The notes under the pieces were generated by a model, which worked only from the letters and a program-made list of their open reading frames with translations, did not search any database and had not been told where the DNA came from. Below, in pieces: positions 17,718 to 48,435 of a stretch of DNA of 64,000 bases (position 1 is its first letter; the number at the start of each line of letters is the position of its first letter). The translations under genes and the position numbers were made by a program. Source of the stretch: Escherichia coli (lineage in GTDB: Bacteria; Pseudomonadota; Gammaproteobacteria; Enterobacterales; Enterobacteriaceae); assembly GCF_029227855.1 (NCBI RefSeq), contig NZ_CP074356.1; one strand, given 5' to 3'.

Positions 17718-17753
17718 GGTCCCCTCGCCCCTTCGGGGAGAGGGTGAGGGGCA
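17718..17753. repeat. GC-rich imperfect palindromic intergenic repeat, copy A
   Basis: ggtcccctcgccccttcggggagagggtgaggggca; its reverse complement aligns closely with the copy at 27433-27474. Confidence 0.6.
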
Positions 17754-17809
17754 AAGCACGCACAGCCCTCCTTACCCATCAAATTAACCCCTTAACTCAC
17801 CTAAACACC

Positions 17810-20281
17810 ATGCCAACACCAACCCTCATCAAAACACTCGCCACTCACCGCGAAAAACCGTTCGTCAGCGTCGTCACGCCCACATGGAACCGTAGCGCAT
17901 TCCTGCCGTACCTGCTCTATATGTACCGCTATCAGGATTACCCGGCAGACCGCCGCGAACTGGTCATCCTCGACGACTCGCCGCAAAGCCATCAACACAT
18001 CATCGACCGCCTGACCAATGGCACACCGGAAGCCTTTAACATCCGCTATATTCATCACCCGGAAAAACTGCCACTGGGCAAAAAACGCAACATGCTCAAC
18101 GAACTGGCGAGCGGCGAATACATCCTCTGCATGGACGATGACGACTACTACCCGGCAGATAAAATCTCTTACGCCATCGCCATGATGCAAAAACACCGGG
18201 CGCTCATCTCCGGTTCCGACCAGATCCCCATCTGGTACAGCCACATCAATCGCATCTTCCAAAGCCGCAGCTTTGGCTCACATAACATCCTCAACGGCAC
18301 CTTTTGCTATCACCGTAACTACCTGAAAAAGCACCGTTACGACGATGATTGTAATTTAGGCGAAGAGAAAAGTTTCACCAACAATTTCAGCGTTAACCCG
18401 CTACAACTGCCCGGCGAGCGCACGATTCTGTGTATCTCGCACAGTCACAACACCTTTGATAAAGATTTTATTCTCGGGGCTAGCACGCCAGTAAACGCGG
18501 CGCTTACGGATATCGTCCGCGATCCGCTGCTGCGCAATGCTTATCTGAGTCTGCATAACGCCACTCATCACCAGGCGATCGATCAGGTCGTACTGATCAA
18601 TCTGGATAAACGCCCGGATCGCTTACAGCAGATCCGTGAAGAACTCACATTGCTGTATATTCCGCCTGAGAAGATCACCCGCCTTGCCGCCAGTGAAAAT
18701 GAAAACGGTCAACGGGGTCGCCGCCAGTCACACTTGCAGGCGCTGCGCCTGGCGCAACAGCACGGCTGGCAAAACTACCTGCTGCTGGAAGATGACGCAG
18801 TTATTCTCAAGCAGGAGAAACATATTCAGGTACTGAACACGCTGCTCGCGAGCCTGGCGAAAATTCCCTGGCAGGTGATGATCCTTGGCGGCGAAATTTC
18901 GCAGGGAACGATGCTAAAAAGTTTGCCGGGGCTGGTGCACGCGCGGGACTGCCGCAAAGTGTGCGCTTATCTGGTGAACAGTCGCTACTACCCGCAACTG
19001 GCGCAGCAGATGAGCCACAATGAACACTCGCTGGAAGACGGCTGGCAGCCGCTGCTACGCGCCGACAAATGGCTGGCCTGTTACCCGAGCCTTAGTTATC
19101 AGCGACCGGGCTTTAGTGATATCGAGAAAAAAGTGACCGACAACATTGCTCACTATTTCAATAAGTTACCCGTTATCACAAAGCCATCCGCATTACCCAT
19201 CGCCGACACCATCGGCTTTTTTATGGAAACCTCCTTCCACTACGCGCTCTACCGCCCAATCATCACTGCTCTACAGGTGCAGGGGCAGAGCTGCACGCTG
19301 GTGATCAATGACCGCGTGTTTAAACCGTTTCTTGATGAGATGCTGGAAACACTGAAAAACATCGACGATCCGCAGCTTAAAGGAATGCGCTTATCTGAAA
19401 TGCAGGCACACGGTCAGCGGGTGAAATGCCTGGTCAGCCCCTACCACACGCCCGCGCTCAATGGCCTGGCAGCGGTGAACGTTCGCGCCATGTACGGCTT
19501 AGCCAAAGAGACGTGGAACCACGCCGACTGGAACCGTTTTTATCAACGCATTTTGTGTTACAGCCACTACAGCCAGCGGGCGCTGGCGCATTTCGGCAAT
19601 GCAAAAGCAGTCGGCAACCCGCGCTTCGACGCCTGGCATAACGGCACGTTTGCCCGCACTCTGCCGGAAAATATTCAACCCGATTCCCGTAAACCTACGG
19701 TGCTCTATGCCCCCACGTTTGGCGCATTAAGCTCCCTGCCCCACTGGGCAGAAAAATTAGGCCGCTTAAGTGGCAATGTGAATCTGATTTGCAAACTGCA
19801 CCACGGCACCTGCTCGCGCCCGGAAGAAGCGGCATCGCTGGCCCTGGCGCGCAGGCATTTAAAACAGCGCACCGACTCCGCCCGCCACACGCTGGCGCTG
19901 CTGGCAAAGGCCGATTACGTGCTGACCGATAACAGCGGCTTTATTTTCGATGCTATTCACGTTGATAAGCGGGTGATCCTGCTCGACTTTCCGGGCATGG
20001 CAGCGTTGCTCGACGGTGAGAAAAGTTACTCCACGCCGGAGAGCGCCGATCAGCAAATCCGCGAAATATTGCCGGTGGCTCATGATATGGCAGAGTTGCG
20101 TTACTTGTTGTCAGAGGCGTTTGACTGGGGGGCGGTGCAGGCGCGGCTTACGAAGATTCGCCATCACTATTGCGATGCGTTTATGGATGGCAAAGCGGGA
20201 GAACGGGCGGCGATGGTGATTGTGGAGGCGCTGGCGGACAAGGAATCGTCAGGGATATGTCGATATAATTCGATTTTTTAA
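17810..20281 (+). CDS. multidomain glycosyltransferase, about 823 aa: N-terminal GT2-like, central GT25-like, C-terminal CDP-glycerol glycerophosphotransferase (TagB/TagF-like)
   Basis: ORF track (17744-20281); start set at ATG 17810 (MPTPTLIK...). N-terminus VSVVTPTWNRSAFLP...LDDSP...CMDDDDYY (DXD motif); middle VVLINLDKRPDRLQQI...LLLEDDAVI; C-terminus TVLYAPTFG...KLHHGT...VLTDNSGFIFDAIHVDKRVI. Domain calls by eye, unverified. Confidence 0.7.
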   Translation: MPTPTLIKTLATHREKPFVSVVTPTWNRSAFLPYLLYMYRYQDYPADRRELVILDDSPQSHQHIIDRLTNGTPEAFNIRYIHHPEKLPLGKKRNMLNELASGEYILCMDDDDYYPADKISYAIAMMQKHRALISGSDQIPIWYSHINRIFQSRSFGSHNILNGTFCYHRNYLKKHRYDDDCNLGEEKSFTNNFSVNPLQLPGERTILCISHSHNTFDKDFILGASTPVNAALTDIVRDPLLRNAYLSLHNATHHQAIDQVVLINLDKRPDRLQQIREELTLLYIPPEKITRLAASENENGQRGRRQSHLQALRLAQQHGWQNYLLLEDDAVILKQEKHIQVLNTLLASLAKIPWQVMILGGEISQGTMLKSLPGLVHARDCRKVCAYLVNSRYYPQLAQQMSHNEHSLEDGWQPLLRADKWLACYPSLSYQRPGFSDIEKKVTDNIAHYFNKLPVITKPSALPIADTIGFFMETSFHYALYRPIITALQVQGQSCTLVINDRVFKPFLDEMLETLKNIDDPQLKGMRLSEMQAHGQRVKCLVSPYHTPALNGLAAVNVRAMYGLAKETWNHADWNRFYQRILCYSHYSQRALAHFGNAKAVGNPRFDAWHNGTFARTLPENIQPDSRKPTVLYAPTFGALSSLPHWAEKLGRLSGNVNLICKLHHGTCSRPEEAASLALARRHLKQRTDSARHTLALLAKADYVLTDNSGFIFDAIHVDKRVILLDFPGMAALLDGEKSYSTPESADQQIREILPVAHDMAELRYLLSEAFDWGAVQARLTKIRHHYCDAFMDGKAGERAAMVIVEALADKESSGICRYNSIF

Positions 20282-20359
20282 ACATGTCGTTGGAATACGT
20301 TTATGCCATCGACATGTTTTAGGGATATGTCGAAAAAACGCGATTTTTTAAACATATTT
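20251..20359. other. structured intergenic element: two ~39-bp direct repeats bracketing a 10-bp-stem hairpin, between convergent glycosyltransferase and cytidylyltransferase genes
   Basis: Direct repeats agggatatgtcga...cgattttttaaacat at 20251-20289 and 20321-20359; inverted repeat aaacatgtcg (20280-20289) / cgacatgttt (20310-20319) with 20-nt loop. Confidence 0.6.
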
Positions 20360-20410
20360 AACATAGCCAAACGGCAGACGGCATCATCTTCTCTCACCGC
20401 GGGAATTAAA

Positions 20411-20815
20411 TCAGTAGGTGGCTGATTTACCCCTAATCACCTCAATGATCCCCGTCGTCGATACCGATGGCGTACGGGGAAAATAGACCACCTCACAGAC
20501 ACACGAGAAATCGTCAAACTTCCCCGCCCAGTCATCGCCCATCACCAAAATATCCGCACCGTACCCCCGCAAATACTCCGCTTTCTGCTCCAGCGATTCC
20601 TCCAGAAATACGCCCTCCACGCACGCCAGCCCGGCGATAATCGCCATGCGGTCATCCTGATGGTAAACCGGTGCCCTGCCCTTTTTGGCGATGTTCAAGG
20701 CATCGGACGATACGCCGACCAGCAACCGTTCGCCCAGCGTGCGGGCGCGTTGTAAAAGGCGCAGATGACCGACGTGAAACACATCAAAGGTGCCGAAGGT
20801 GATGACCGTTTTCAT
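20411..20815 (-). CDS. glycerol-3-phosphate cytidylyltransferase (TagD-like), 134 aa
   Basis: ORF track; MKTVITFGTFDVFHVGHLRLL... (HxGH motif) and ...MGDDWAGKF...CEVVYFPRT..STTGIIE closely resemble TagD-type cytidylyltransferases; last gene of the fliE-fliJ operon. Confidence 0.8.
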   Translation of the reverse strand: MKTVITFGTFDVFHVGHLRLLQRARTLGERLLVGVSSDALNIAKKGRAPVYHQDDRMAIIAGLACVEGVFLEESLEQKAEYLRGYGADILVMGDDWAGKFDDFSCVCEVVYFPRTPSVSTTGIIEVIRGKSATY

Positions 20816-29893: not shown

Positions 29894-30676
29894 ATGCGCA
29901 CAAGCGACGTTACGCAACTGATGGATCTGGCGCTGGGGCTGTGGTTTCCCTTCGTGCGCATTATGGCGTTTCTGCGCTATGTGCCGGTGCTGGATAACAG
30001 CGCCCTGACCGTGCGCGTGCGGATTATTTTGTCGCTGGCGCTGGCAATCATCATCACGCCGTTGATCCCCCATCCCATTCCCCACGATCTGCTTTCACTC
30101 AACAGCCTGATCCTGACGGTGGAGCAAATTTTATGGGGCATGTTGTTCGGGCTGATGTTTCAGTTTCTGTTTCTCGCGCTACAACTGGCCGGACAAATTC
30201 TCTCGTTCAATATGGGGATGAGCATGGCGGTGATGAACGACCCGAGCAGCGGCGCATCGACCACCGTGCTGGCGGAGTTAATCAACGTCTATGCGATCCT
30301 GCTGTTTTTTGCCATGGACGGGCATCTGCTGCTGGTAAGCGTGCTGTATAAGGGCTTCACCTACTGGCCGATTGGTAACGCGCTGCATCCGCAAACCCTG
30401 CGCACCATCGCGCTGGCCTTTAGCTGGGTGCTGGCGTCCGCATCACTGCTGGCGCTGCCGACCACCTTCATCATGCTGATTGTGCAGGGCTGCTTTGGCC
30501 TGCTCAACCGCATCGCGCCGCCGCTGAACCTCTTTTCGCTCGGCTTTCCCATCAACATGCTGGCGGGGCTGGTTTGCTTTGCCACCCTGCTCTACAACCT
30601 GCCGGATCACTATCTGCATCTGGCGAATTTTGTGTTGCAGCAACTCGACGCGCTGAAAGGTCACTATGGCGGATAG
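29894..30676 (+). CDS. lfiR: export apparatus protein FliR (Flag-2 LfiR)
   Basis: ORF track (29843-30676); start at ATG 29894 immediately after the fliQ stop; polytopic membrane protein. Confidence 0.85.
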   Translation: MRTSDVTQLMDLALGLWFPFVRIMAFLRYVPVLDNSALTVRVRIILSLALAIIITPLIPHPIPHDLLSLNSLILTVEQILWGMLFGLMFQFLFLALQLAGQILSFNMGMSMAVMNDPSSGASTTVLAELINVYAILLFFAMDGHLLLVSVLYKGFTYWPIGNALHPQTLRTIALAFSWVLASASLLALPTTFIMLIVQGCFGLLNRIAPPLNLFSLGFPINMLAGLVCFATLLYNLPDHYLHLANFVLQQLDALKGHYGG

Positions 30677-31805
30677 CAGCAGCGAAGAAAAAACAGAGAA
30701 ACCCTCGGCGCAAAAGCTGCGTAAAGCGCGTGAAGAGGGGCAACTGCCGCGCTCGAAGGATATGGGGCTGGCAGCGAGCCTGTTTGCAGCGTTTGTGGTG
30801 ATCTCCAGCAGTTTTCCGTGGTATGCCGATTTTGTGCGCGAGAGTTTTATCAGCGTGCATCAGTACGCGCAGGAGATTAATAACCCGCAGGTGATCGGTC
30901 AGTTTCTGCGCCACCACCTGTTAATTCTCGGCAAGTTTATCCTTACGTTGCTGCCGATGCCCGCCGCCGCGCTGCTCTCTTCGCTGGTGCCGGGCGGCTG
31001 GCTGTTTCTGCCGAAAAAAATCCTCCCGGATTTCAGCAAAATTAGCCCGTTAAAAGGCATTGGGCGTCTGTTTTCCAGTGAACATCTGGCGGAAACGGGA
31101 AAGATGACGGTGAAGTCTGCCGTGGTGCTGGTGATGCTGTGGGTAAGCCTGCGCAATAACTTTGCCGCCTTTCTCGGCCTGCAGGCGCTGCCGTTCAAAC
31201 TGGCGATGAATGACGGTTTGTCGCTCTACGCCAGCGTGATGCGCAACTTTGTCATCCTGTTTATTTTCTTTGCGCTTCTCGACGTGCCGCTGGCGAAAGC
31301 CCTGTTCACCAAAGGGCTGAAGATGACCAAACAAGAACTGAAAGAAGAGTACAAAAATCAGGAAGGCAAGCCGGAAGTGAAGGCGCGCGTGCGGCGGCTG
31401 CAACGGCAGCTGGCGATGGGGCAAATTCGCAAAGTGGTGCCAAAGGCCAACGTGGTGATCACCAACCCGACCCACTACGCCGTGGCGTTGCAGTATGACC
31501 AGTCGCGTGCCGCCGCGCCGTTTGTGGTGGCGAAAGGCACCGATGAAATCGCCCTCTATATTCGCCAGGTCGCTGCTGAAAGTCAGGTGGAAGTGGTCGA
31601 GTTCCCGCGGCTGGCGCGCTCGGTTTACTATACCACTCAGGTGAATCAGCAAATTCCTTTTCAGCTTTACCGGGCTATCGCCCACGTTCTGACCTACGTC
31701 CTGCAAATGAAACACTGGCGCGAGGGCGCACAGCCGCGCCCGGCCCTGAACAGACATATTTCCATTCCCAAAGAGGTGCTTAAACTGGATGGCGAAAACA
31801 ACTAA
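30666..31805 (+). CDS. lfhB: export apparatus protein FlhB (Flag-2 LfhB)
   Basis: ORF track, 379 aa; conserved NPTH autocleavage motif (…VVITNPTHYAVAL…). Confidence 0.9.
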   Translation: MADSSSEEKTEKPSAQKLRKAREEGQLPRSKDMGLAASLFAAFVVISSSFPWYADFVRESFISVHQYAQEINNPQVIGQFLRHHLLILGKFILTLLPMPAAALLSSLVPGGWLFLPKKILPDFSKISPLKGIGRLFSSEHLAETGKMTVKSAVVLVMLWVSLRNNFAAFLGLQALPFKLAMNDGLSLYASVMRNFVILFIFFALLDVPLAKALFTKGLKMTKQELKEEYKNQEGKPEVKARVRRLQRQLAMGQIRKVVPKANVVITNPTHYAVALQYDQSRAAAPFVVAKGTDEIALYIRQVAAESQVEVVEFPRLARSVYYTTQVNQQIPFQLYRAIAHVLTYVLQMKHWREGAQPRPALNRHISIPKEVLKLDGENN

Positions 31806-33918: not shown

Positions 33919-34314
33919 ATGACGTCAGGGATTGATAAGATGATGAAAACGCGTTTATTAATATCTCAAGCATCGAACATTATCACCATTAAAGGTCAAC
34001 CAGCCGCAGTGACATTTGAAGCCGATATCAACGCATTTCGCGGCAAATTTCTCAATGTAAATGGTTATTGCGACTTTGTAGCGACAAGCATTGAGGCGTT
34101 ATACCGGGAAGGTGAAAGTGCGCTGGATGAGTGGATGGCGGATTGTGAAGAGGACGGCATTGCCCCTTTTCGTGAAGAAGAGCAAAAACGCCTGACGCTT
34201 CGTGTTCCTCATCACATCGATTCACGACTGACCATTGTCGCCAGACAACATTCCATTTCAAAAAATCAGCTCATTGTTGATGTATTAGAACGTGAGTTTT
34301 CATCCCAGATGTAA
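33919..34314 (+). CDS. HicB-like/ribbon-helix-helix small protein (orphan antitoxin-like), 131 aa
   Basis: ORF track; C-terminal ...RLTLRVPHHIDSRLTIVARQHSISKNQLIVDVLERE resembles RHH (CopG/Arc) DNA-binding motifs fused to a HicB-like fold; no HicA-like partner seen nearby. Confidence 0.45.
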   Translation: MTSGIDKMMKTRLLISQASNIITIKGQPAAVTFEADINAFRGKFLNVNGYCDFVATSIEALYREGESALDEWMADCEEDGIAPFREEEQKRLTLRVPHHIDSRLTIVARQHSISKNQLIVDVLEREFSSQM

Positions 34315-41767: not shown

Positions 41768-41800
41768 GAGCCTGTCCATCATTCTGTGTAAATGCCTTTC

Positions 41801-42043
41801 TCAGAAGTGACCGTCAAGGCGGTCACCGAACTCGATAATAAAGCGACTCATCCCTATCCGCCAGTCCTGAAGTGGCATCGTCCATTTTTGCGACGCTGAC
41901 TGGAAAGCCAGCCACACCACTTTTTTCACCGACTCATCTGTCGGGAACACTTTCCGTTTCTTTATCGCATGTGTGATGATGCTATTCAGCGATTCGATTG
42001 CGTTAGTGGTGTAGATAACCTTGCGGATCGCCTCCGGGTACAC
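41801..42043 (-). pseudogene. C-terminal fragment of an IS256-family (Mutator-type) transposase
   Basis: ORF track 80 aa ...YTTNAIESLNSIITHAIKKRKVFPTDESVKKVVWLAFQSASQKWTMPLQDWR... matches the conserved C-terminus of IS256-family transposases; the N-terminal ~300 aa are absent. Confidence 0.6.
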
Positions 42044-42120
42044 GAAGAATGTGGCAACATTCGGCCAGTTTGCCCGCCAGCTGCGACTTATCTGCGGGTA
42101 CCGTGCATCCCATTCCTTCC

Positions 42121-42143
42121 CAGGGAAAGATTACGAAAGCCCG
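42121..42143. repeat. 23-bp direct repeat, right copy
   Basis: cagggaaagattacgaaagcccg. Confidence 0.6.
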
Positions 42144-43263
42144 CTCCCCGCAAGGACTGACGCCAGATAGTTTCTGTCCATGGCTGCTTTTCGCATCTTA
42201 CGTCTTAACCCTGCCTTGAATACCTTATCATTCGTCAAAATATTAATAGCGATGTGCCGTATCCCTGAAAATAATTCTGCTGCATTTCCTCTTCTTATTT
42301 TGCAGTCGTCTTCATTCATTACCACGTCCAGACGCCAGTGCAGCTTATTCTCCACGTGCCAGTGGTTTCGGATTGCTGTGGCGAACTTCTCTGCGGTTAA
42401 ATCAGCAGAACTAATATAATATCTGACCGCCATTTCTGGCTCTTTCTTTTGTTCTGCTATTATTGACCGAAAGGAGACTGCCACGCATAATTTCTTCAGA
42501 CCTTTCCATTCAAACGTGAAATCAATAAGTTCATCAGGGACATCGCAAACAATGTGAAGACGGATTTCTTCTCTGCCGTGACTCTTTTCACTCATTGCGT
42601 AACTGTCATGCTCTGGATTATTTAATTCTTTCAGCGGAAATTCTCGAAGGCTTTATTTAGCCGCCCCTGGTTTCCTTTTACAGCGAATAAATAATCACCT
42701 CCCTGTTTTTGTATCTTCTCTGCAATATCTTTCTGGCAACCCATCGCATCAGTTGTGATGATTTTTCCTTTAATATCCAGCATGTTAAGAAGTTCTGGGA
42801 TAGCTGTAATTTCATTGGATTTCTCATCCGTCCTGATCTGTCCGATGACCAGACTGTGCATTGTTGAGAACGCACTAATGACATGAATCGCTCCCTTGCG
42901 GCGACTCTTGTCATAAGAATGCCGGAGTGTTTTTCCATCAATTGCGATGACGTCTTTATCATCTGAAGTATGGCAATCTCGCATCCAGTTAATAAAGCAC
43001 TCGTGAAATTTTGCAGGACTGATACAGGATACAACTCTGGCGATGGTATCGTGAACAGGAATACCATTTTAAAAATCACCGTATTGTTTTAAAAAATCGA
43101 GATGTGTTTCCCCAAAATCCTCTATATCTTCCCAACCTTCCGCACCCGAAATAACAGCACAAATAGTCAACAGTAGAATATCCGATAATTTATGTTCCAC
43201 TTTCCAGGCTTGTCTGTAATCGGGGATAATAGAAATATGCCCCATCAATTTTTTAAGTTCTAT
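42131..43263 (-). mobile_element. ISAs1-family (H-repeat) transposase gene, inactivated
   Basis: Track ORFs 42631-42984 and 42131-42595 are consecutive parts of an ISAs1/H-rpt transposase in different frames; hand translation of 43263-42985 gives the N-terminus with ATA in place of the first ATG (an in-frame Met codon remains at 43245-43243), and an in-frame TAA at 43071-43069. Confidence 0.8.
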
Positions 43264-43483
43264 TTTGTTCTCCTTAATTATGTAAGGAGTATTTGATCAT
43301 GTATAAGCAATAAAAAACAGCTTTAGGTAATGAGGAATATCTCAATTTTTAAGCATAAAATGCGAATTATTTAGTACAAAAAAGCAGCGTTACGTGATCT
43401 TTCCCTGCACTTCACCCTAACTTTAATTTAACTTCAAGAAGTATTAAGGCCTCAATAGCGAACTTAATACTTCTTAAAGAATA

Positions 43484-43861
43484 TCACTCCTGACCAAAAT
43501 CTTTCCACACTAATGCATGAGACTTTGATTTATCACCCAAAAATTTACTTACATCTTTCCAAAGTAAAGAATTGCTATCGGTCGCAGTGACTATTGCCTC
43601 TATAAGCCCTGTAGCTACAACTGTGGCCAATTCATCATCAATCGAGACCATACCATCTTCGACATGTTTAAATATTTTTTCTCTTTCAATATCACCCATT
43701 TCATAAAAATTTTTTACAATCGTTTTTCCAATCTGAGAGAACAACATAACCACCGGTGGAGTTTCTGGATGCCAGTATTCATTAGCTAATGAGACTGTCT
43801 CAGACAAAACAGTGGAAAACGATGCCATTTTTTCTATATAATTAGCAATATATTGGTTCAT
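43484..43861 (-). CDS. putative immunity protein for the Rhs C-terminal toxin, 125 aa
   Basis: ORF track; small AT-rich ORF whose ATG overlaps the rhs stop codon; classic effector-immunity arrangement; family unknown. Confidence 0.5.
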   Translation of the reverse strand: MNQYIANYIEKMASFSTVLSETVSLANEYWHPETPPVVMLFSQIGKTIVKNFYEMGDIEREKIFKHVEDGMVSIDDELATVVATGLIEAIVTATDSNSLLWKDVSKFLGDKSKSHALVWKDFGQE

Positions 43862-46800
43862 TACTTGCCTCCCAAAGCATTCTGTAAATCCTGAAGAACG
43901 TTTTCTGCTGCTGCTCGATCCCCTGGAGATGCTGTTGGATTCTTATCCAACCAATCCTGTAAAGCCCTTGTATAATCCTGTGCTTTCAATACATGTCCTC
44001 TACCACCAACTTTTTCACCTGTGGCCAATTCATAACGAACAGCATCTGCTGTGCTTCCACTTCCTACTTTTGCATTTGGCCGATAAAGATCGTCTATAAT
44101 ATTTTTCAAATTTGAATCTGTAACGTCAGGTTTTCCCATCTTCTGTCGCAATTCATCTTTATACCGTTCATGCTGCATACGATCTCTTGCGCTATTCTCA
44201 TCTTCTGGTCCCCATCCTCCCGGGCTTCCCGTACTGCCACCACCCAGGCAGTTCTTCTCTTCCTCCGTCAAATCCTTCCCGACATTTGGATTCTCTTTTG
44301 ATGAATCATCATTTCCAAACACGCTGGAAAAAGCACCATAGGGATCTCGCCAGAATTCCATTTGACTTTGTGCATTTAATAATTCGGCTTCACCCTGCAT
44401 CTCCATACTTTTCTCAATCGCGTCCCCAACAGCCTCGCGATTGTTGTATATTATTATACCACCACCAATAACCACCGTACCGACTGCCGCACCGACTAAC
44501 ATCCCCGGAGGGCCTCCTACCGAACCGATCTCTGTACCTACTTCAGAACCAGTTCCCATGGCAGTTAATGCTCCTGCGCCCAACGCCGCACTTAATCCCA
44601 GCGGATCCAGCCGTTGCACCGGGTTCAGTGGATACGCATACAGGTTCCATCCCCCCTTCAGCCCAATCGGATCCTGGGTGATATACCTCCCCTGTAGCGG
44701 GTCATAGTACCGGTGACGGTTGTAGTACAGCCCCGACTCCTCATCATACTGCTGCCCCGGCAGACGGAGTGACTGTTGAAGGTGCTGCGTGCTTTCCTCT
44801 CCCAGCAGGTTTCCCCACTCGTCATACTCCCCGCGCCACGCCGTTTCCCCTTCCGGGCTGATAAGCGCCTGCGGCAGCCCACGGTGGTCACAGTGGTAAA
44901 GATGAAGTTTCCTCTCCGGGATGTATTCCGCCTCCAGTTGCGCCGCCATCTGTTCCGCCGTCAACCCACACTGTGCAAGCCACTGCTGGCTTTCTTCACT
45001 CACGCTGCCCTGCCGCAGTTCCCGCTCCAGCCTCCCCAGCATCACCGCCAGCTCCGCCGGTAGCGTCACACCCGTGTCCTCCTGCAACACCTCCGCCAGG
45101 CTACGGTGCCGCGCCTTCGCCTGTTCGCCATTCTCTGTTTCGATTCTCAGGAGCGGCGTGAAGCTCCCCGGCTGGTATACCGTCTGGATACGCGTGGTGT
45201 CGGTCTGTACCGTCGTCAGCCTGTCGCCGTCCCACCCGTACCAGGTCACCTCCGGTTTACGCGACAGCGACATCCACCCCGTCAGGTCACGCTCCCGCCG
45301 CCACACCCGTTTTCCCGTCCGGCGGCCCAGCGGGTCATAGAGGTAGCGGCTCTCCACCTGTGGCTCGCCGTGCTGTATCCGCGTGTAGAACACCAGGCGG
45401 TGCTGGCTGTCGTAATGGTAGTGGTGCGTCCGCTCGTCGTGCATCCGTATCACCCCTTCCGGGATACGGTCCGTCTTCTCCGCCAGCCTGCCGTATTCAT
45501 CGTAGCGGTAGACATAGTGCGCATCTTCCGTGATGCGGTTATCCGGCCACGCCGTGAGGGTGCTGTCCGGGTGCAGTTCCGGGTCCGGCAGCCGGTTTCC
45601 TGCCGGGTCCGTCGCATACGGGATATCAATGTCCAGGTTCGCTGCCGTGGTGTGGACGCCCGTCAGCCTTCCCGTGTCGCTGTAACGGTACTCCCGGCTC
45701 TCCTGCGGGCCGCTGATGCGAATTAGCTGTCCGTTGTCGTTCCAGTCGTAGTCACGGTCAAGCTGCGGAAGGTTCAGGTGCCTGCTCCGGAGCTGGCCGC
45801 TGGTATTCCAGGCGGTGGCAAGCTCATATGCCTCCCCGCCGAAGCTGCGGGCCGTCTCACGGTGCAGCCGGTCCCGCGTGTACTCGACCAGTGGCGTACC
45901 ACCCAGCTTCATTCCCGCAAGATAACCGCTGCCATACGTCAGCCACTCCACCGGCGGCAGACCGTCCAGCTCCTGACGGGTCGCCAGCCCCTGTTCGCTG
46001 TACGCGTGCTTCGTCTCATGCTCCCACAGCATCTCCCCCGTCTCCGGGTTCTCCACCGTCTGCCGTTCGCCCGTCAGGCGGCCTTTATCGTCGTGGCCGT
46101 AGTGGACCGCCACACGGTGGCCTTCGCTGATATGGCTGATTTCTGTCAGCCAGCCGTGCTCATCATACTGCCACTGCTCCGCCGGGTCGCCGTTCACCGT
46201 CCGGTGCGTGATGCGGTCCGACGCATCGTAATGCCAGAGGGTGATAAGTCCCTCGTCTTCACTGTGGACAAGCTGCCCTGTGGCGCTGTACCGGTAACGC
46301 TGCGTCCTGCCGTCAAAGCCGCGCTGCTCCGTCAGCCTGTCCACCGGGTCATACCGGAACGTGGACTGGCTGCCGTTCTCGTTGGTCAGCACGGTGATGC
46401 GCCCGGCAGCGTCATACCCCATGCTGCGCGTCAGACCGCCTTCCGTCACACTCACCGGACGCCCGCGTTTATCATATTCGATGGTGCTGCGTTTACCGTC
46501 CGGTGATATCGTTGCTGTCAGGTCGCCTGCGGCGCTGTACTCATAACGGGTTTCACGCCCCTGCGCATCCTTCTGACTGACCAGTTGGCCTCGCGGGTTA
46601 TAACTGCTGTAAGTGCTGATGCCTTCCTCCCGGTGAACGGCGATTTGTTGACCGTACCGGTCATACTCATACCGCGTCATGTACCCCGAGCAGTCCGTGA
46701 AGGCCCGAAGCTGACCGTACCGGTTTCGCGTTATTCTCCGCGTCACCCCGATTCCGTCTTCCACCGCGCCGGGCAGGCTACTGCGGGGGGAGTCATAAAA

Positions 46801-48360
46801 CCAGCGCGTAATGTTACCGTTGCGCGAGATCTCTTCTGCCAGTCGGCCCTGACGGTCATATTTCCGGCTGCTGCGTAAACCATCCGGATATGTCACTGAA
46901 GTCAGTTGCAACTGGCTGTTGTAACCATACCGTACCGTCCTGCCGTCCGGCAGTATCACTGAAGTCAGCTTTCCAGACGCCATATGCAGCCGGTACTCCG
47001 TCCGCCGTCCTGCCGCATCCGTCTGCGCCTTCAGCCTCCCCGCCTCATCATACTCGCTGCGGGTGATGCTCCCGTCGGCATGCTCCTTCTTCACCACACG
47101 CTTCAGGCCACCCCCGCCTTCCGTGTACAGCACCTCCCGCCGGTTCAGGCTGTCCGTGATGGTCACACGGTCCTGCCCGTACTCAAAGCGGTAGTCCAGC
47201 CCCTCCGGGTTGACCTGCTCCGTCACCCGCCCGGTATCATCATACCGGTAGCGGCTCTCCGGCCTCCCTGCATAATGGTGCGCCACCATCCGCCCGGCGT
47301 GCTCCGCATCATAAGTAAACCCGCGCACCTGCGTCCCGCTGCGGTCATACACCGCCCGCAGTTCTCCGCTGGCCGTGTACGTATAGCGCGCCAGCGGCGC
47401 AGTCGGCTGTTCATCCGGGTATGCCGGGTCGTGTGTCAGCCACACCGCCTCCAGCCGGATACCGTTATCGGCACCGTATTCTGTACCGGCGGGCAGCGTA
47501 TCGGGGAAAACCTGAGAAGAGGAAACAGAACGGGGACCGGCTGGAGAAGATAAAGAAGAGGCGCGCTGTTTACGGAAGGCTTCCGCCCGCTGCGCCTGCG
47601 TGCTCAGCGCCAGGTGAAAACAGCGGCCCGCGCCGTCCGTCACCCCCGTCACCGCACCCGCCACGTCACCCTCTGCCGCCCGGTGGAAGGCCAGCGTCCG
47701 CCCGAAGCCGTCCACCACGCCCGTCAGCACCCGGTATGCGGGCGGCTCCGGCGGCAGCACCTCGTCCGCCCCCGGCACCCGCTCCGGCCAGCCGAGCACC
47801 AGCCACTGCCCGGTTGTGCTGGCAGCCATCATATAGATGTGTGGACTCAGACGGACCGCTTCCGGCAACGCCCGCCAGAGCCGCGCAAGCGGGTGGCCTT
47901 TGTGCTGTTTCAGCACCCCGCACCGCGCCAGCCAGAACGACTCGCTGCGGCTGTAGCTTATCTCGCCGGGAAACAGGGGTTCAAAGTGAATGCTCCTGCC
48001 GCCGCTGTCGTTGAGTATCAGGCCTTCATCGCGTATCTGTAAGCGGATATCGAAGGGGGCTTTCCAGCCGGGACCAAACACCCCCACCGGCGCGGGCGTC
48101 CTGGTCCGGTAGCTGCTGTAGGCGCGGAAAAGAACAAACGGCAGCGGGCCGGACAGTGCCAGGTCGGTTTCAGCAGGCAGCACCTTCGCTCCCAGCAGCG
48201 GGTTTACCGGATTGCCATATTTCGGCGTGGCTTCCCCTGTGGGACACACCGAGCAGGCCACACCGGTTGGCGCACCTATCAGCACCCCTGCTGAACCCTG
48301 CACAATATCCAGTCCCTTGCGGGTCATGTCACCCTGCCGCGCCGCCGGTTTTCCACCCAT
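43861..48360 (-). CDS. rhs: PAAR-domain Rhs (YD-repeat) polymorphic toxin, 1499 aa, with variable C-terminal toxin domain
   Basis: ORF track; N-terminal PAAR motif ([11 protein letters not shown]...), long YD-repeat core, DPLGL core-end motif at 44593-44607 followed by a ~243-aa C-terminal domain of lower GC. Confidence 0.9.
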
Positions 48361-48435
48361 GAATCAATTCCTTCTGCTTTTAATATGGTTTATCTGGTCA
48401 CTGCACCAGTTCCGTTTTAATTTTTTGCACCTGAC

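Follow-up and report, generated by a model that had tools for sequence, protein, structure and literature searches.

A probable deletion scar of a SoFic-type fic gene and its upstream repeat array in the Flag-2 locus of Escherichia coli

Two repeats and a hairpin between convergent genes

The DNA considered here is a stretch of 64,000 nucleotides from an Escherichia coli genome, which we call the window. Its sequence matches the chromosome of E. coli JNEC-KY178 at 100% identity. It contains the Flag-2 (lateral flagella) locus, and the element of interest is a pair of repeats with a hairpin between them that sits in this locus with a convergent gene on either side. One of the genes encodes a glycosyltransferase (GT) of the Flag-2 variable region. 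The other encodes a cytidylyltransferase-like protein (CTase). The GT open reading frame (ORF) spans 17744..20281 in the ORF list, and its TAA stop (20279-20281) lies inside the first repeat, as a preliminary description of this DNA had said. The CTase gene is the first one on the minus strand beyond the element, and it heads the fliJ/fliI/fliH block of Flag-2. The positions of all features are collected in Table 1.

The repeats are 35 nt each, are 31/35 identical (89%) and start 70 bp apart. The spacing agrees with the preliminary description, which was slightly generous with a length of about 39 bp. The repeat pattern has 2 matches in the 64-kb window, and 0.00 are expected from 100 shuffles. 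A repeat search also shows imperfect palindromic symmetry within each 35-nt repeat (ATATGTCGAAAAAA / TTTTTTAAACATAT), a point that had been overlooked. The hairpin that had been reported is present, with perfect 10-bp arms (AAACATGTCG at 20280-20289 and CGACATGTTT at 20310-20319) and a 20-nt loop. It can be extended to arms of 18 nt with 89% complementarity (20280-20297 / 20302-20319), and the segment contains the half-sites ATGTTTAT and ATCGACAT. The remark that all of this is more organised than an ordinary terminator pointed in the right direction, since by homology the repeats are units of an operator-like array. We argue below that the element is very probably a deletion scar. It consists of the first 1.5 units of an array of roughly 70-bp units that belonged to a fic gene of the SoFic type, with two short pieces of this gene behind them, and its palindromes are most likely inert.

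The intact locus and the three deletions

The best evidence comes from loci where the same two genes still have a fic gene between them. A tblastn search with the window proteins finds the order GT, array, fic, CTase, FliJ in Pseudocitrobacter (L030, L046) and in Escherichia sp. E1V33 (L092). Nine complete E. coli genomes have the identical arrangement, for example EC1515 (locus L167; the three-unit region is at 4041139-4041312 of NZ_CP021844.1). There the GT stop is followed by a repetitive extragenic palindrome (REP), about 140 bp of spacer, three 70-bp units, fic (358 aa) and then CTase. The 3' ends of fic and CTase overlap where the locus is intact, and the intact GT allele ends in ...VIVEALG*. 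When the window is mapped onto the EC1515 locus by blastn it falls into four collinear blocks separated by three gaps, so three deletions made the window allele. The EC1515 layout is thus the ancestral Flag-2 order, and the deletions fused the GT frame into unit 1.

Each deletion has left its mark. The first took the native GT stop, and therefore the GT ORF extends 15 codons into unit 1 (...EALADKESSGICRYNSIF*). The GAATCG-CAG in its junction corresponds to the bases just 5' of unit 1. The second removed the remainder of unit 2 together with the segment that bears the promoter, as well as unit 3 and fic codons 1-315. Its junction has one filler base (T at 20359) and is flanked by a 9-bp local duplication (TTAAACATA/TTTAACATA). 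The third took about 75 bp from within the fic 3' part. As a result the last unit of the relic does not abut an intact SoFic start; all that follows it of the gene is codons 316-327 and the last six codons. The preliminary description treated the element as a functional part of the GT/CTase pair. Instead it is a collinear remnant of a deleted fic locus, and no second copy of the array is detectable in the genome. As an observation of its own, E1V33 has a partial second copy of CTase between GT and the array (L092 2473-2782), in two pieces of ~79-88% identity, which suggests further rearrangement at this Flag-2 hotspot.

Table 1. Features of the window around the relic and their counterparts in the EC1515 locus (L167)
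Feature	Window position	Strand	L167 position	Remarks
GT, Flag-2 variable-region glycosyltransferase	17795..20281	+		RefSeq annotation of identical record; Pfam Glycos_transf_2
Block 1, GT end	20154-20234		310-390	95% identity
Deletion 1 junction	20235..20254	+		20 nt in place of ~220-234 bp (GT stop, REP/bacterial interspersed mosaic element (BIME), spacer)
Repeat 1, operator-like palindrome of array unit 1	20251..20285	+	625-655 (homologous)	core ATATGTCGATATAATTCGATTTTTTAAACAT
Block 2, unit 1 and first half of unit 2	20255-20358		625-728	86.5% identity
Hairpin, inter-operator half of unit 1	20280..20319	+	650-689 (homologous)	TAAACATGT...ACGTTTATGCCATCGACATGT
Repeat 2, operator-like palindrome of array unit 2	20321..20355	+	695-725 (homologous)	ATATGTCGAAAAAACGCGATTTTTTAAACAT
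Deletion 2 junction	20356..20359	+		1012 bp lost; window 20358 = L167 728, 20360 = L167 1741
fic (SoFic) fragment, codons 316-327 (NIAKRQTASS.L)	20360..20396	+		C-terminal winged-helix domain
Block 3, fic codons 316-327	20360-20396		1741-1777	97% identity
Deletion 3 junction	20397..20398	+		~74-76 bp of fic 3' part lost
fic fragment, last six codons and TAG (20415-20417)	20399..20417	+		overlaps convergent CTase stop
Block 4, last six fic codons, stop and CTase end	20399-20450		1854-1905	98% identity
CTase, cytidylyltransferase-like, 134 aa	20411..20815	-		ORF list; RefSeq annotation; Pfam CTP_transf_like

The identity of the lost gene can be read from the intact copies. The Flag-2 fic product matches the PADLOC model SoFic with E = 8e-121 as well as the PDB entries 9vjc and 3eqx. 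Its Pfam domains are Fic_N, Fic and SoFic-like_C, the last of which covers residues 277-352 and is a C-terminal winged helix. By these matches the lost gene is an orthologue of SoFic, a known AMP-transferase. PADLOC/DefenseFinder list SoFic among the anti-phage defence systems. Expression of wild-type EcSofic is toxic, an effect that AS1, a small protein encoded downstream, counteracts (PMC12249575). An AS1-like small downstream gene does not fit at the Flag-2 copy because fic overlaps CTase tail to tail. The lost gene is orthologous to the gene of this defence system, but the system itself is absent from the window, where ~90% of fic is deleted and only ~55 nt of coding sequence remain along with part of the upstream region.

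The array upstream of fic and what may bind it

The relic can only be understood through the arrays that still precede a fic gene. We looked for these with an exact-pattern scan of a genome collection (one genome per species) and of viral collections, and used only matches that have a Fic N-terminus 3' of them or that were confirmed by tblastn. Many scan matches in unrelated metagenome-assembled genomes (MAGs) were discarded as chance. In many Gammaproteobacteria, across dozens of genera, the family motif, ATATGTCGAwAAAA-N5-TTTTTTAAACAT, lies immediately next to the fic start codon or overlaps it. The palindrome ATGTCGAwAAAA-N5-TTTnnTAAACAT stands at the start of Fic homologues with the N-terminus MxWxPxxPYNxLPxLPP, and it is also found at a fic start in one MAG of another phylum. 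The last unit of an array ends in ...TAAACAT, which runs into the fic ATG. The palindrome next to the start codon occupies the short leader of fic. Arrays comprise 1-11 units. Their period is 70 bp in the Enterobacterales, 81 bp in Shewanella and ~71 bp in Cellvibrio, Halomonas and Methylobacter relatives.

Upstream regions from 17 genera align gap-free over 109 nt with a mean column identity of 86%. Each unit carries four half-sites that share an ATGT core and alternate in orientation: ATATGTCGAT, TTAAACATAT, ATATGTTTAT and ATCGACAyrT. The first two make up the 35-nt repeat, and the last two pair up as a palindrome in the unit's other half. The window units are 75-87% identical to arrays upstream of fic, having the motif as well as ACATGTTTAT..ATCGACAT. 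The central 110 bp of the window element match regions upstream of 'protein adenylyltransferase Fic' in E. coli genomes at 75-78% identity. Of the 21 high-information positions in the family consensus, repeat 1 keeps 20 and repeat 2 keeps 21. Two other descriptions of the repeats were considered and dropped. A CRISPR array with 35-nt repeats and 35-nt spacers does not work since the 'spacers' are conserved between units and genera. A first blast search suggested dispersed repeats, with up to 8-12 'places' per genome, but these are different offsets along a single tandem array that precedes fic.

Only the last inter-operator segment of the intact locus has promoter hexamers. It reads GTGACA-17-TATGAT or TATTAT, a 10/12 match to sigma-70 (L167 732-760), and the key hexamer positions vary little or not at all between genera (columns 43-48 and 66-71 of the 17-sequence alignment). 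The second half of the last unit also reads as these hexamers, so the promoter overlaps one palindrome. This conserved promoter (GTGACA-17-TATTAT) is not in the window; the segment was deleted and there is no equivalent match. A promoter pattern scan of 20150-20480 finds nothing within the two repeats and the hairpin, hexamers included. The only promoter-like matches in that region are two weak ones at 9/12. The plus-strand match, at 20358-20387, starts beyond repeat 2 and lies over the deletion junction and the fic fragment; the other is on the minus strand, inside the GT coding sequence.

Published work makes it plausible that such arrays are bound by the protein they precede. Dimeric, not monomeric, SoFic of S. 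oneidensis specifically binds the first 100 bp 5' of its start codon (bioRxiv 10.64898/2026.07.09.737422). The sequence of the bound fragment, taken from the supplement of the preprint, contains ATGTCGATAAAAGAAGGTTTTTTTAAAC and ACATGTCGATTGAATCGACAT and includes the perfect palindrome ACATGTCGAT-TGA-ATCGACAT. The related Fic protein CccR of Yersinia pseudotuberculosis is an autorepressor: it acts on its own promoter through a palindrome with wide spacing at the -35/-10 boxes (PMC9755527). The CccR and SoFic operators resemble the array in that inverted-repeat half-sites lie at or around the -35/-10 boxes and the beginning of a fic gene whose product is toxic. The known regions are bound by the C-terminal winged-helix domains of the dimer, and the Shewanella fragment shares its motif with the window repeats. 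However, CccR has a single palindrome of a different sequence (AGATAATCAT-N26-ATGATAATCT), whereas the array has about four ATGT-core half-sites in every 70-bp unit and 1-11 units. The window differs from both, as its gene and promoter are deleted and its site is orphaned.

In the native setting the last 35-nt palindrome would end in the fic ATG, with the last inter-operator segment serving as a near-consensus sigma-70 promoter. By analogy with these operators, dimeric SoFic most likely uses its winged-helix domains to bind the half-sites of the array, and in this way represses the toxic gene that encodes it. We infer this autorepressor step; the three published results (SoFic binding, the motif in the bound fragment, and CccR) fit it. 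The suggestion that the window holds a protein-binding array was therefore partly correct. SoFic binds a fragment with the motif in vitro, but the window copy is a remnant that has lost its promoter-bearing unit. One can go further and imagine that the 70-bp unit is an undescribed modular SoFic operator with four ATGT-core half-sites, amplified 2-11x for cooperative repression, and that orphans such as the Flag-2 relic and the phage unit described below are functional SoFic-binding sites. We regard this extended proposal as quite unlikely.

It is worth considering whether the symmetry in the element belongs to RNA rather than DNA. One scenario is that it forms a 3'-end structure, or a weak bidirectional terminator, for the GT and CTase transcripts. 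The folds of the two strands are somewhat more stable than those of shuffled sequences (z = -2.5 and -3.3), TTTT lies directly 3' of the main hairpin on the plus strand, and there is no other terminator between GT and CTase. The stems are A+T-rich, though, and there are 0 sites with a G+C-rich stem and a T run on either strand of 20150-20480. The stability of the fold is what one expects of any palindromic operator DNA. An Rfam scan of the whole window at the gathering threshold gives 0 matches. The homologous units show no covariation. In the three operator and palindrome helices of the 17 sequences, 78.3% of cells are paired and covariation is 0.061, both equal to the means for shuffled alignments. 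Where the operators oppose C to A or G to A, 16-17/17 sequences are unpaired, so the mismatches are invariant. For the 10-bp hairpin itself only 61% of cells pair across the 17 homologous regions, there is no compensatory change, and the pairing is not kept from locus to locus. The symmetry is kept as sequence with fixed asymmetries, which argues for a protein-binding site in DNA rather than an RNA stem. We consider the terminator scenario unlikely, although it is compatible with a scar, and the RNA element that had also been proposed is not borne out.

Another RNA scenario is that the array, and with it the relic, is the repeat of a type III toxin-antitoxin system, like the ToxI of ToxIN, that is transcribed to neutralise the toxin. 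The layouts are alike. In both there are tandem repeats directly 5' of a toxic abortive-infection gene (2-11 of them here), and the toxicity and defence role of SoFic are documented (PMC12249575; PADLOC). The parts are not the same, however. The toxin here, a winged-helix Fic AMP-transferase, is not an endoribonuclease of the ToxN/AbiQ type, and the unit is ~70 bp rather than ~36 nt. No terminator separates the array from the gene, and the last unit overlaps the ATG. Since the conserved promoter is inside the last unit, the upstream units would not be transcribed from it. There is no covariation in the helices examined, a set that does not take in pseudoknots. SoFic binds the region as double-stranded DNA, and the reported antitoxin, AS1, is a protein. 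An RNA antitoxin is very improbable on these grounds.

In the leuX-tRNA island of E. coli (L002, L012) about nine 70-bp units lie between the gene for a helix-turn-helix regulator and fic, and the island carries an integrase, a MobH relaxase and other defence-like genes. In strain SCU-108 this array (L002 1009-1610) is a 140-bp super-repeat of two alternating unit types. A sensitive search covered 5,426 complete E. coli genomes, and most of the leuX-island SoFic array is found in 284 of them, some with fewer units. Another E. coli island (L003) has three units upstream of fic. In Salmonella enterica subsp. houtenae, arizonae and relatives (L009 4017-4120; L062, L097, L116, L122, L126) there are two-unit arrays followed by a decayed fic start (ATGAGCAGGAATCGATAA..., with a stop after 5 codons). 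This implies that the loss of SoFic with operator units left behind happened more than once. A search of plasmids gave three records only, two of them linked to fic. Certain IMG/VR contigs of roughly 70-220 kb (L141, L142, L146, L152, L154, L157, L163) have a recurring CATGTCGAT-N16-TAAACAT-N10-ATATGTCGAT. This viral site with its 41-bp spacing resembles SoFic half-sites, and no fic is nearby.

Exactly one 70-bp unit of the SoFic array is found in five rV5-like (Vequintavirus) phages: ECP26, ECP32, S127 BCL3, NHEP1 and B9-1. In Escherichia phage vB_EcoM-ECP26 it occupies L006 2503-2572 (MK883717.1, about 119615-119684). It is a precise insertion relative to the empty site in FV3/rV5, and it alters the end of a small membrane-peptide ORF. 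On either side of the unit there is a 13-bp direct repeat, TGTTGCCGGAATA; the empty site has it once, and it is itself part of the unit. A defence-gene operator carried by a phage could be a decoy, or it could be merely a recombination accident.

The phage insertion, with its direct duplication, and the presence of units in several genomic contexts are what one could cite if the window element were a small mobile element inserted between GT and CTase, similar to a miniature inverted-repeat transposable element. However, all blocks in the window are collinear with the intact fic locus and there are fic fragments 3' of the repeats. The borders have neither terminal inverted repeats nor a target duplication, and the alternative allele differs by far more than the element. 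Every other genomic copy found is tied to fic or to fic pseudogenes. The 13 bp around the phage unit are part of the unit, so homology-driven capture explains them equally well. An inserted mobile element is extremely improbable.

Alleles across E. coli and the fate of the relic

A window-like intergenic region is present in only 107 of the 5,426 complete genomes, of which roughly 1,280 bear Flag-2. Six scar alleles were compared, all from unrelated strains, including strain 042, which is the enteroaggregative reference strain, a chicken isolate and a wild-bird isolate. Their junctions are all identical, so the scar arose once. The window is set apart from the other scar alleles by the T at 20266, which removes an earlier TAA and adds 5 codons to the GT tail. 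Alignment of the Flag-2 loci places a REP/BIME at the spot between GT and CTase in most E. coli. The preliminary description held that a lack of conservation at orthologous loci would speak against it, and that is half of what was found, since in most of these loci the element is absent and the REP is there.

The REP and the element invite comparison because both are palindromic and both occupy the same intergenic position in different alleles. Their sequences are unrelated. The REP is G+C-rich and is dispersed hundreds of times per genome, whereas the element is A+T-rich and tied to fic. The 95JB1, EC1515 and L046 alleles have the REP. In the window the REP was deleted, and the REP consensus (GCCGGATAAGGCG... 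type palindromes) is absent from this allele except possibly for 8-10 nt at 20235-20244. The common REP-only allele lacks L167 509-1883, has different junctions and has an altered CTase C-terminus. It may stem from another deletion, independent of those in the scar, or else be the condition that preceded the arrival of fic.

Several points weigh against our view that this is an inert scar. Both palindromes of the relic are nearly perfect at the conserved positions, and the scar is near-invariant across diverged E. coli lineages. This conservation could reflect residual function rather than youth. The majority REP-only allele could reflect a deletion as well as a pre-insertion state. The absence of SoFic elsewhere in the window genome is deduced from the absence of the array and not from a protein search. 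Finally, the binding in the preprint was localised to a 100-bp fragment only, with the Shewanella protein.

The first two of these points could be turned into a case that the relic is still a working site, bound by SoFic in trans or by some other regulator. It might then be a decoy, an insulator, or a roadblock between GT and the CTase/fliJ/fliI genes. The leuX-island copy of other strains is a possible source of SoFic in trans. On the other hand, the element has a match in one place only in the window genome, where no second array copy is detectable. There are so few substitutions between the six strains that there is no power to detect selection. The junctions resemble simple deletions and most Flag-2 loci do without the element. 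We judge a retained site to be distinctly unlikely. None of the four alternatives (a retained site, a terminator, a type III toxin-antitoxin repeat or a mobile element) explains the collinear fic fragments.

With the promoter segment and the gene gone and no other copy of the array detectable in the genome, the two palindromes of the scar are most likely inert passengers in the 3' region of GT. At most they would add some hairpin potential to the ends of the GT and CTase transcripts.

Some other features of the window should be mentioned. In the RefSeq record identical to the window, Flag-2 flhB (30666-31804) is annotated as frameshifted, which may leave this strain with a non-functional lateral flagellar system. 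A HicB-family antitoxin gene (33960-34313) lies directly 3' of Flag-2 flhA, and no hicA is annotated adjacent to it. The stretch 41800-48400 is low in GC (40% at 42-44 kb) and has ISAs1 and other transposase pseudogenes inside it. It is adjoined by genes for an Rhs core protein, VgrG and Hcp, which are the edge of a type VI secretion system (T6SS) cluster that fills the remaining window. CccR, a relative of Fic, is a T6SS effector. No link is seen between the T6SS cluster of the window and the fic relic.

As a feature of this genome the element matters little. It is a pseudogenised autoregulatory region of a winged-helix Fic gene, which is a known kind of thing, and as the debris of the loss of a defence gene it explains the odd 15-residue tail of the GT. 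It does tell us that a SoFic phage-defence toxin was once within the lateral-flagella variable region of E. coli and that the scar lineage lost it by deletion. The comparison gives a precise candidate for the SoFic operator, namely the motif at the start codon together with the palindrome that overlaps the promoter. The searchable literature has no description of the 70-bp repeat upstream of fic, its conserved motif, its tandem amplification or its capture by phages, so the conserved array of 2-11 units and the single unit in some rV5-like phages appear to be undescribed. Because the motif and its amplification have not been described there, this comparative footprint is a modest new lead for the SoFic field, though one that is not about the biology of the window itself. 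If the orphan units were functional binding sites, the one carried by phages could act as a decoy that disturbs SoFic control.

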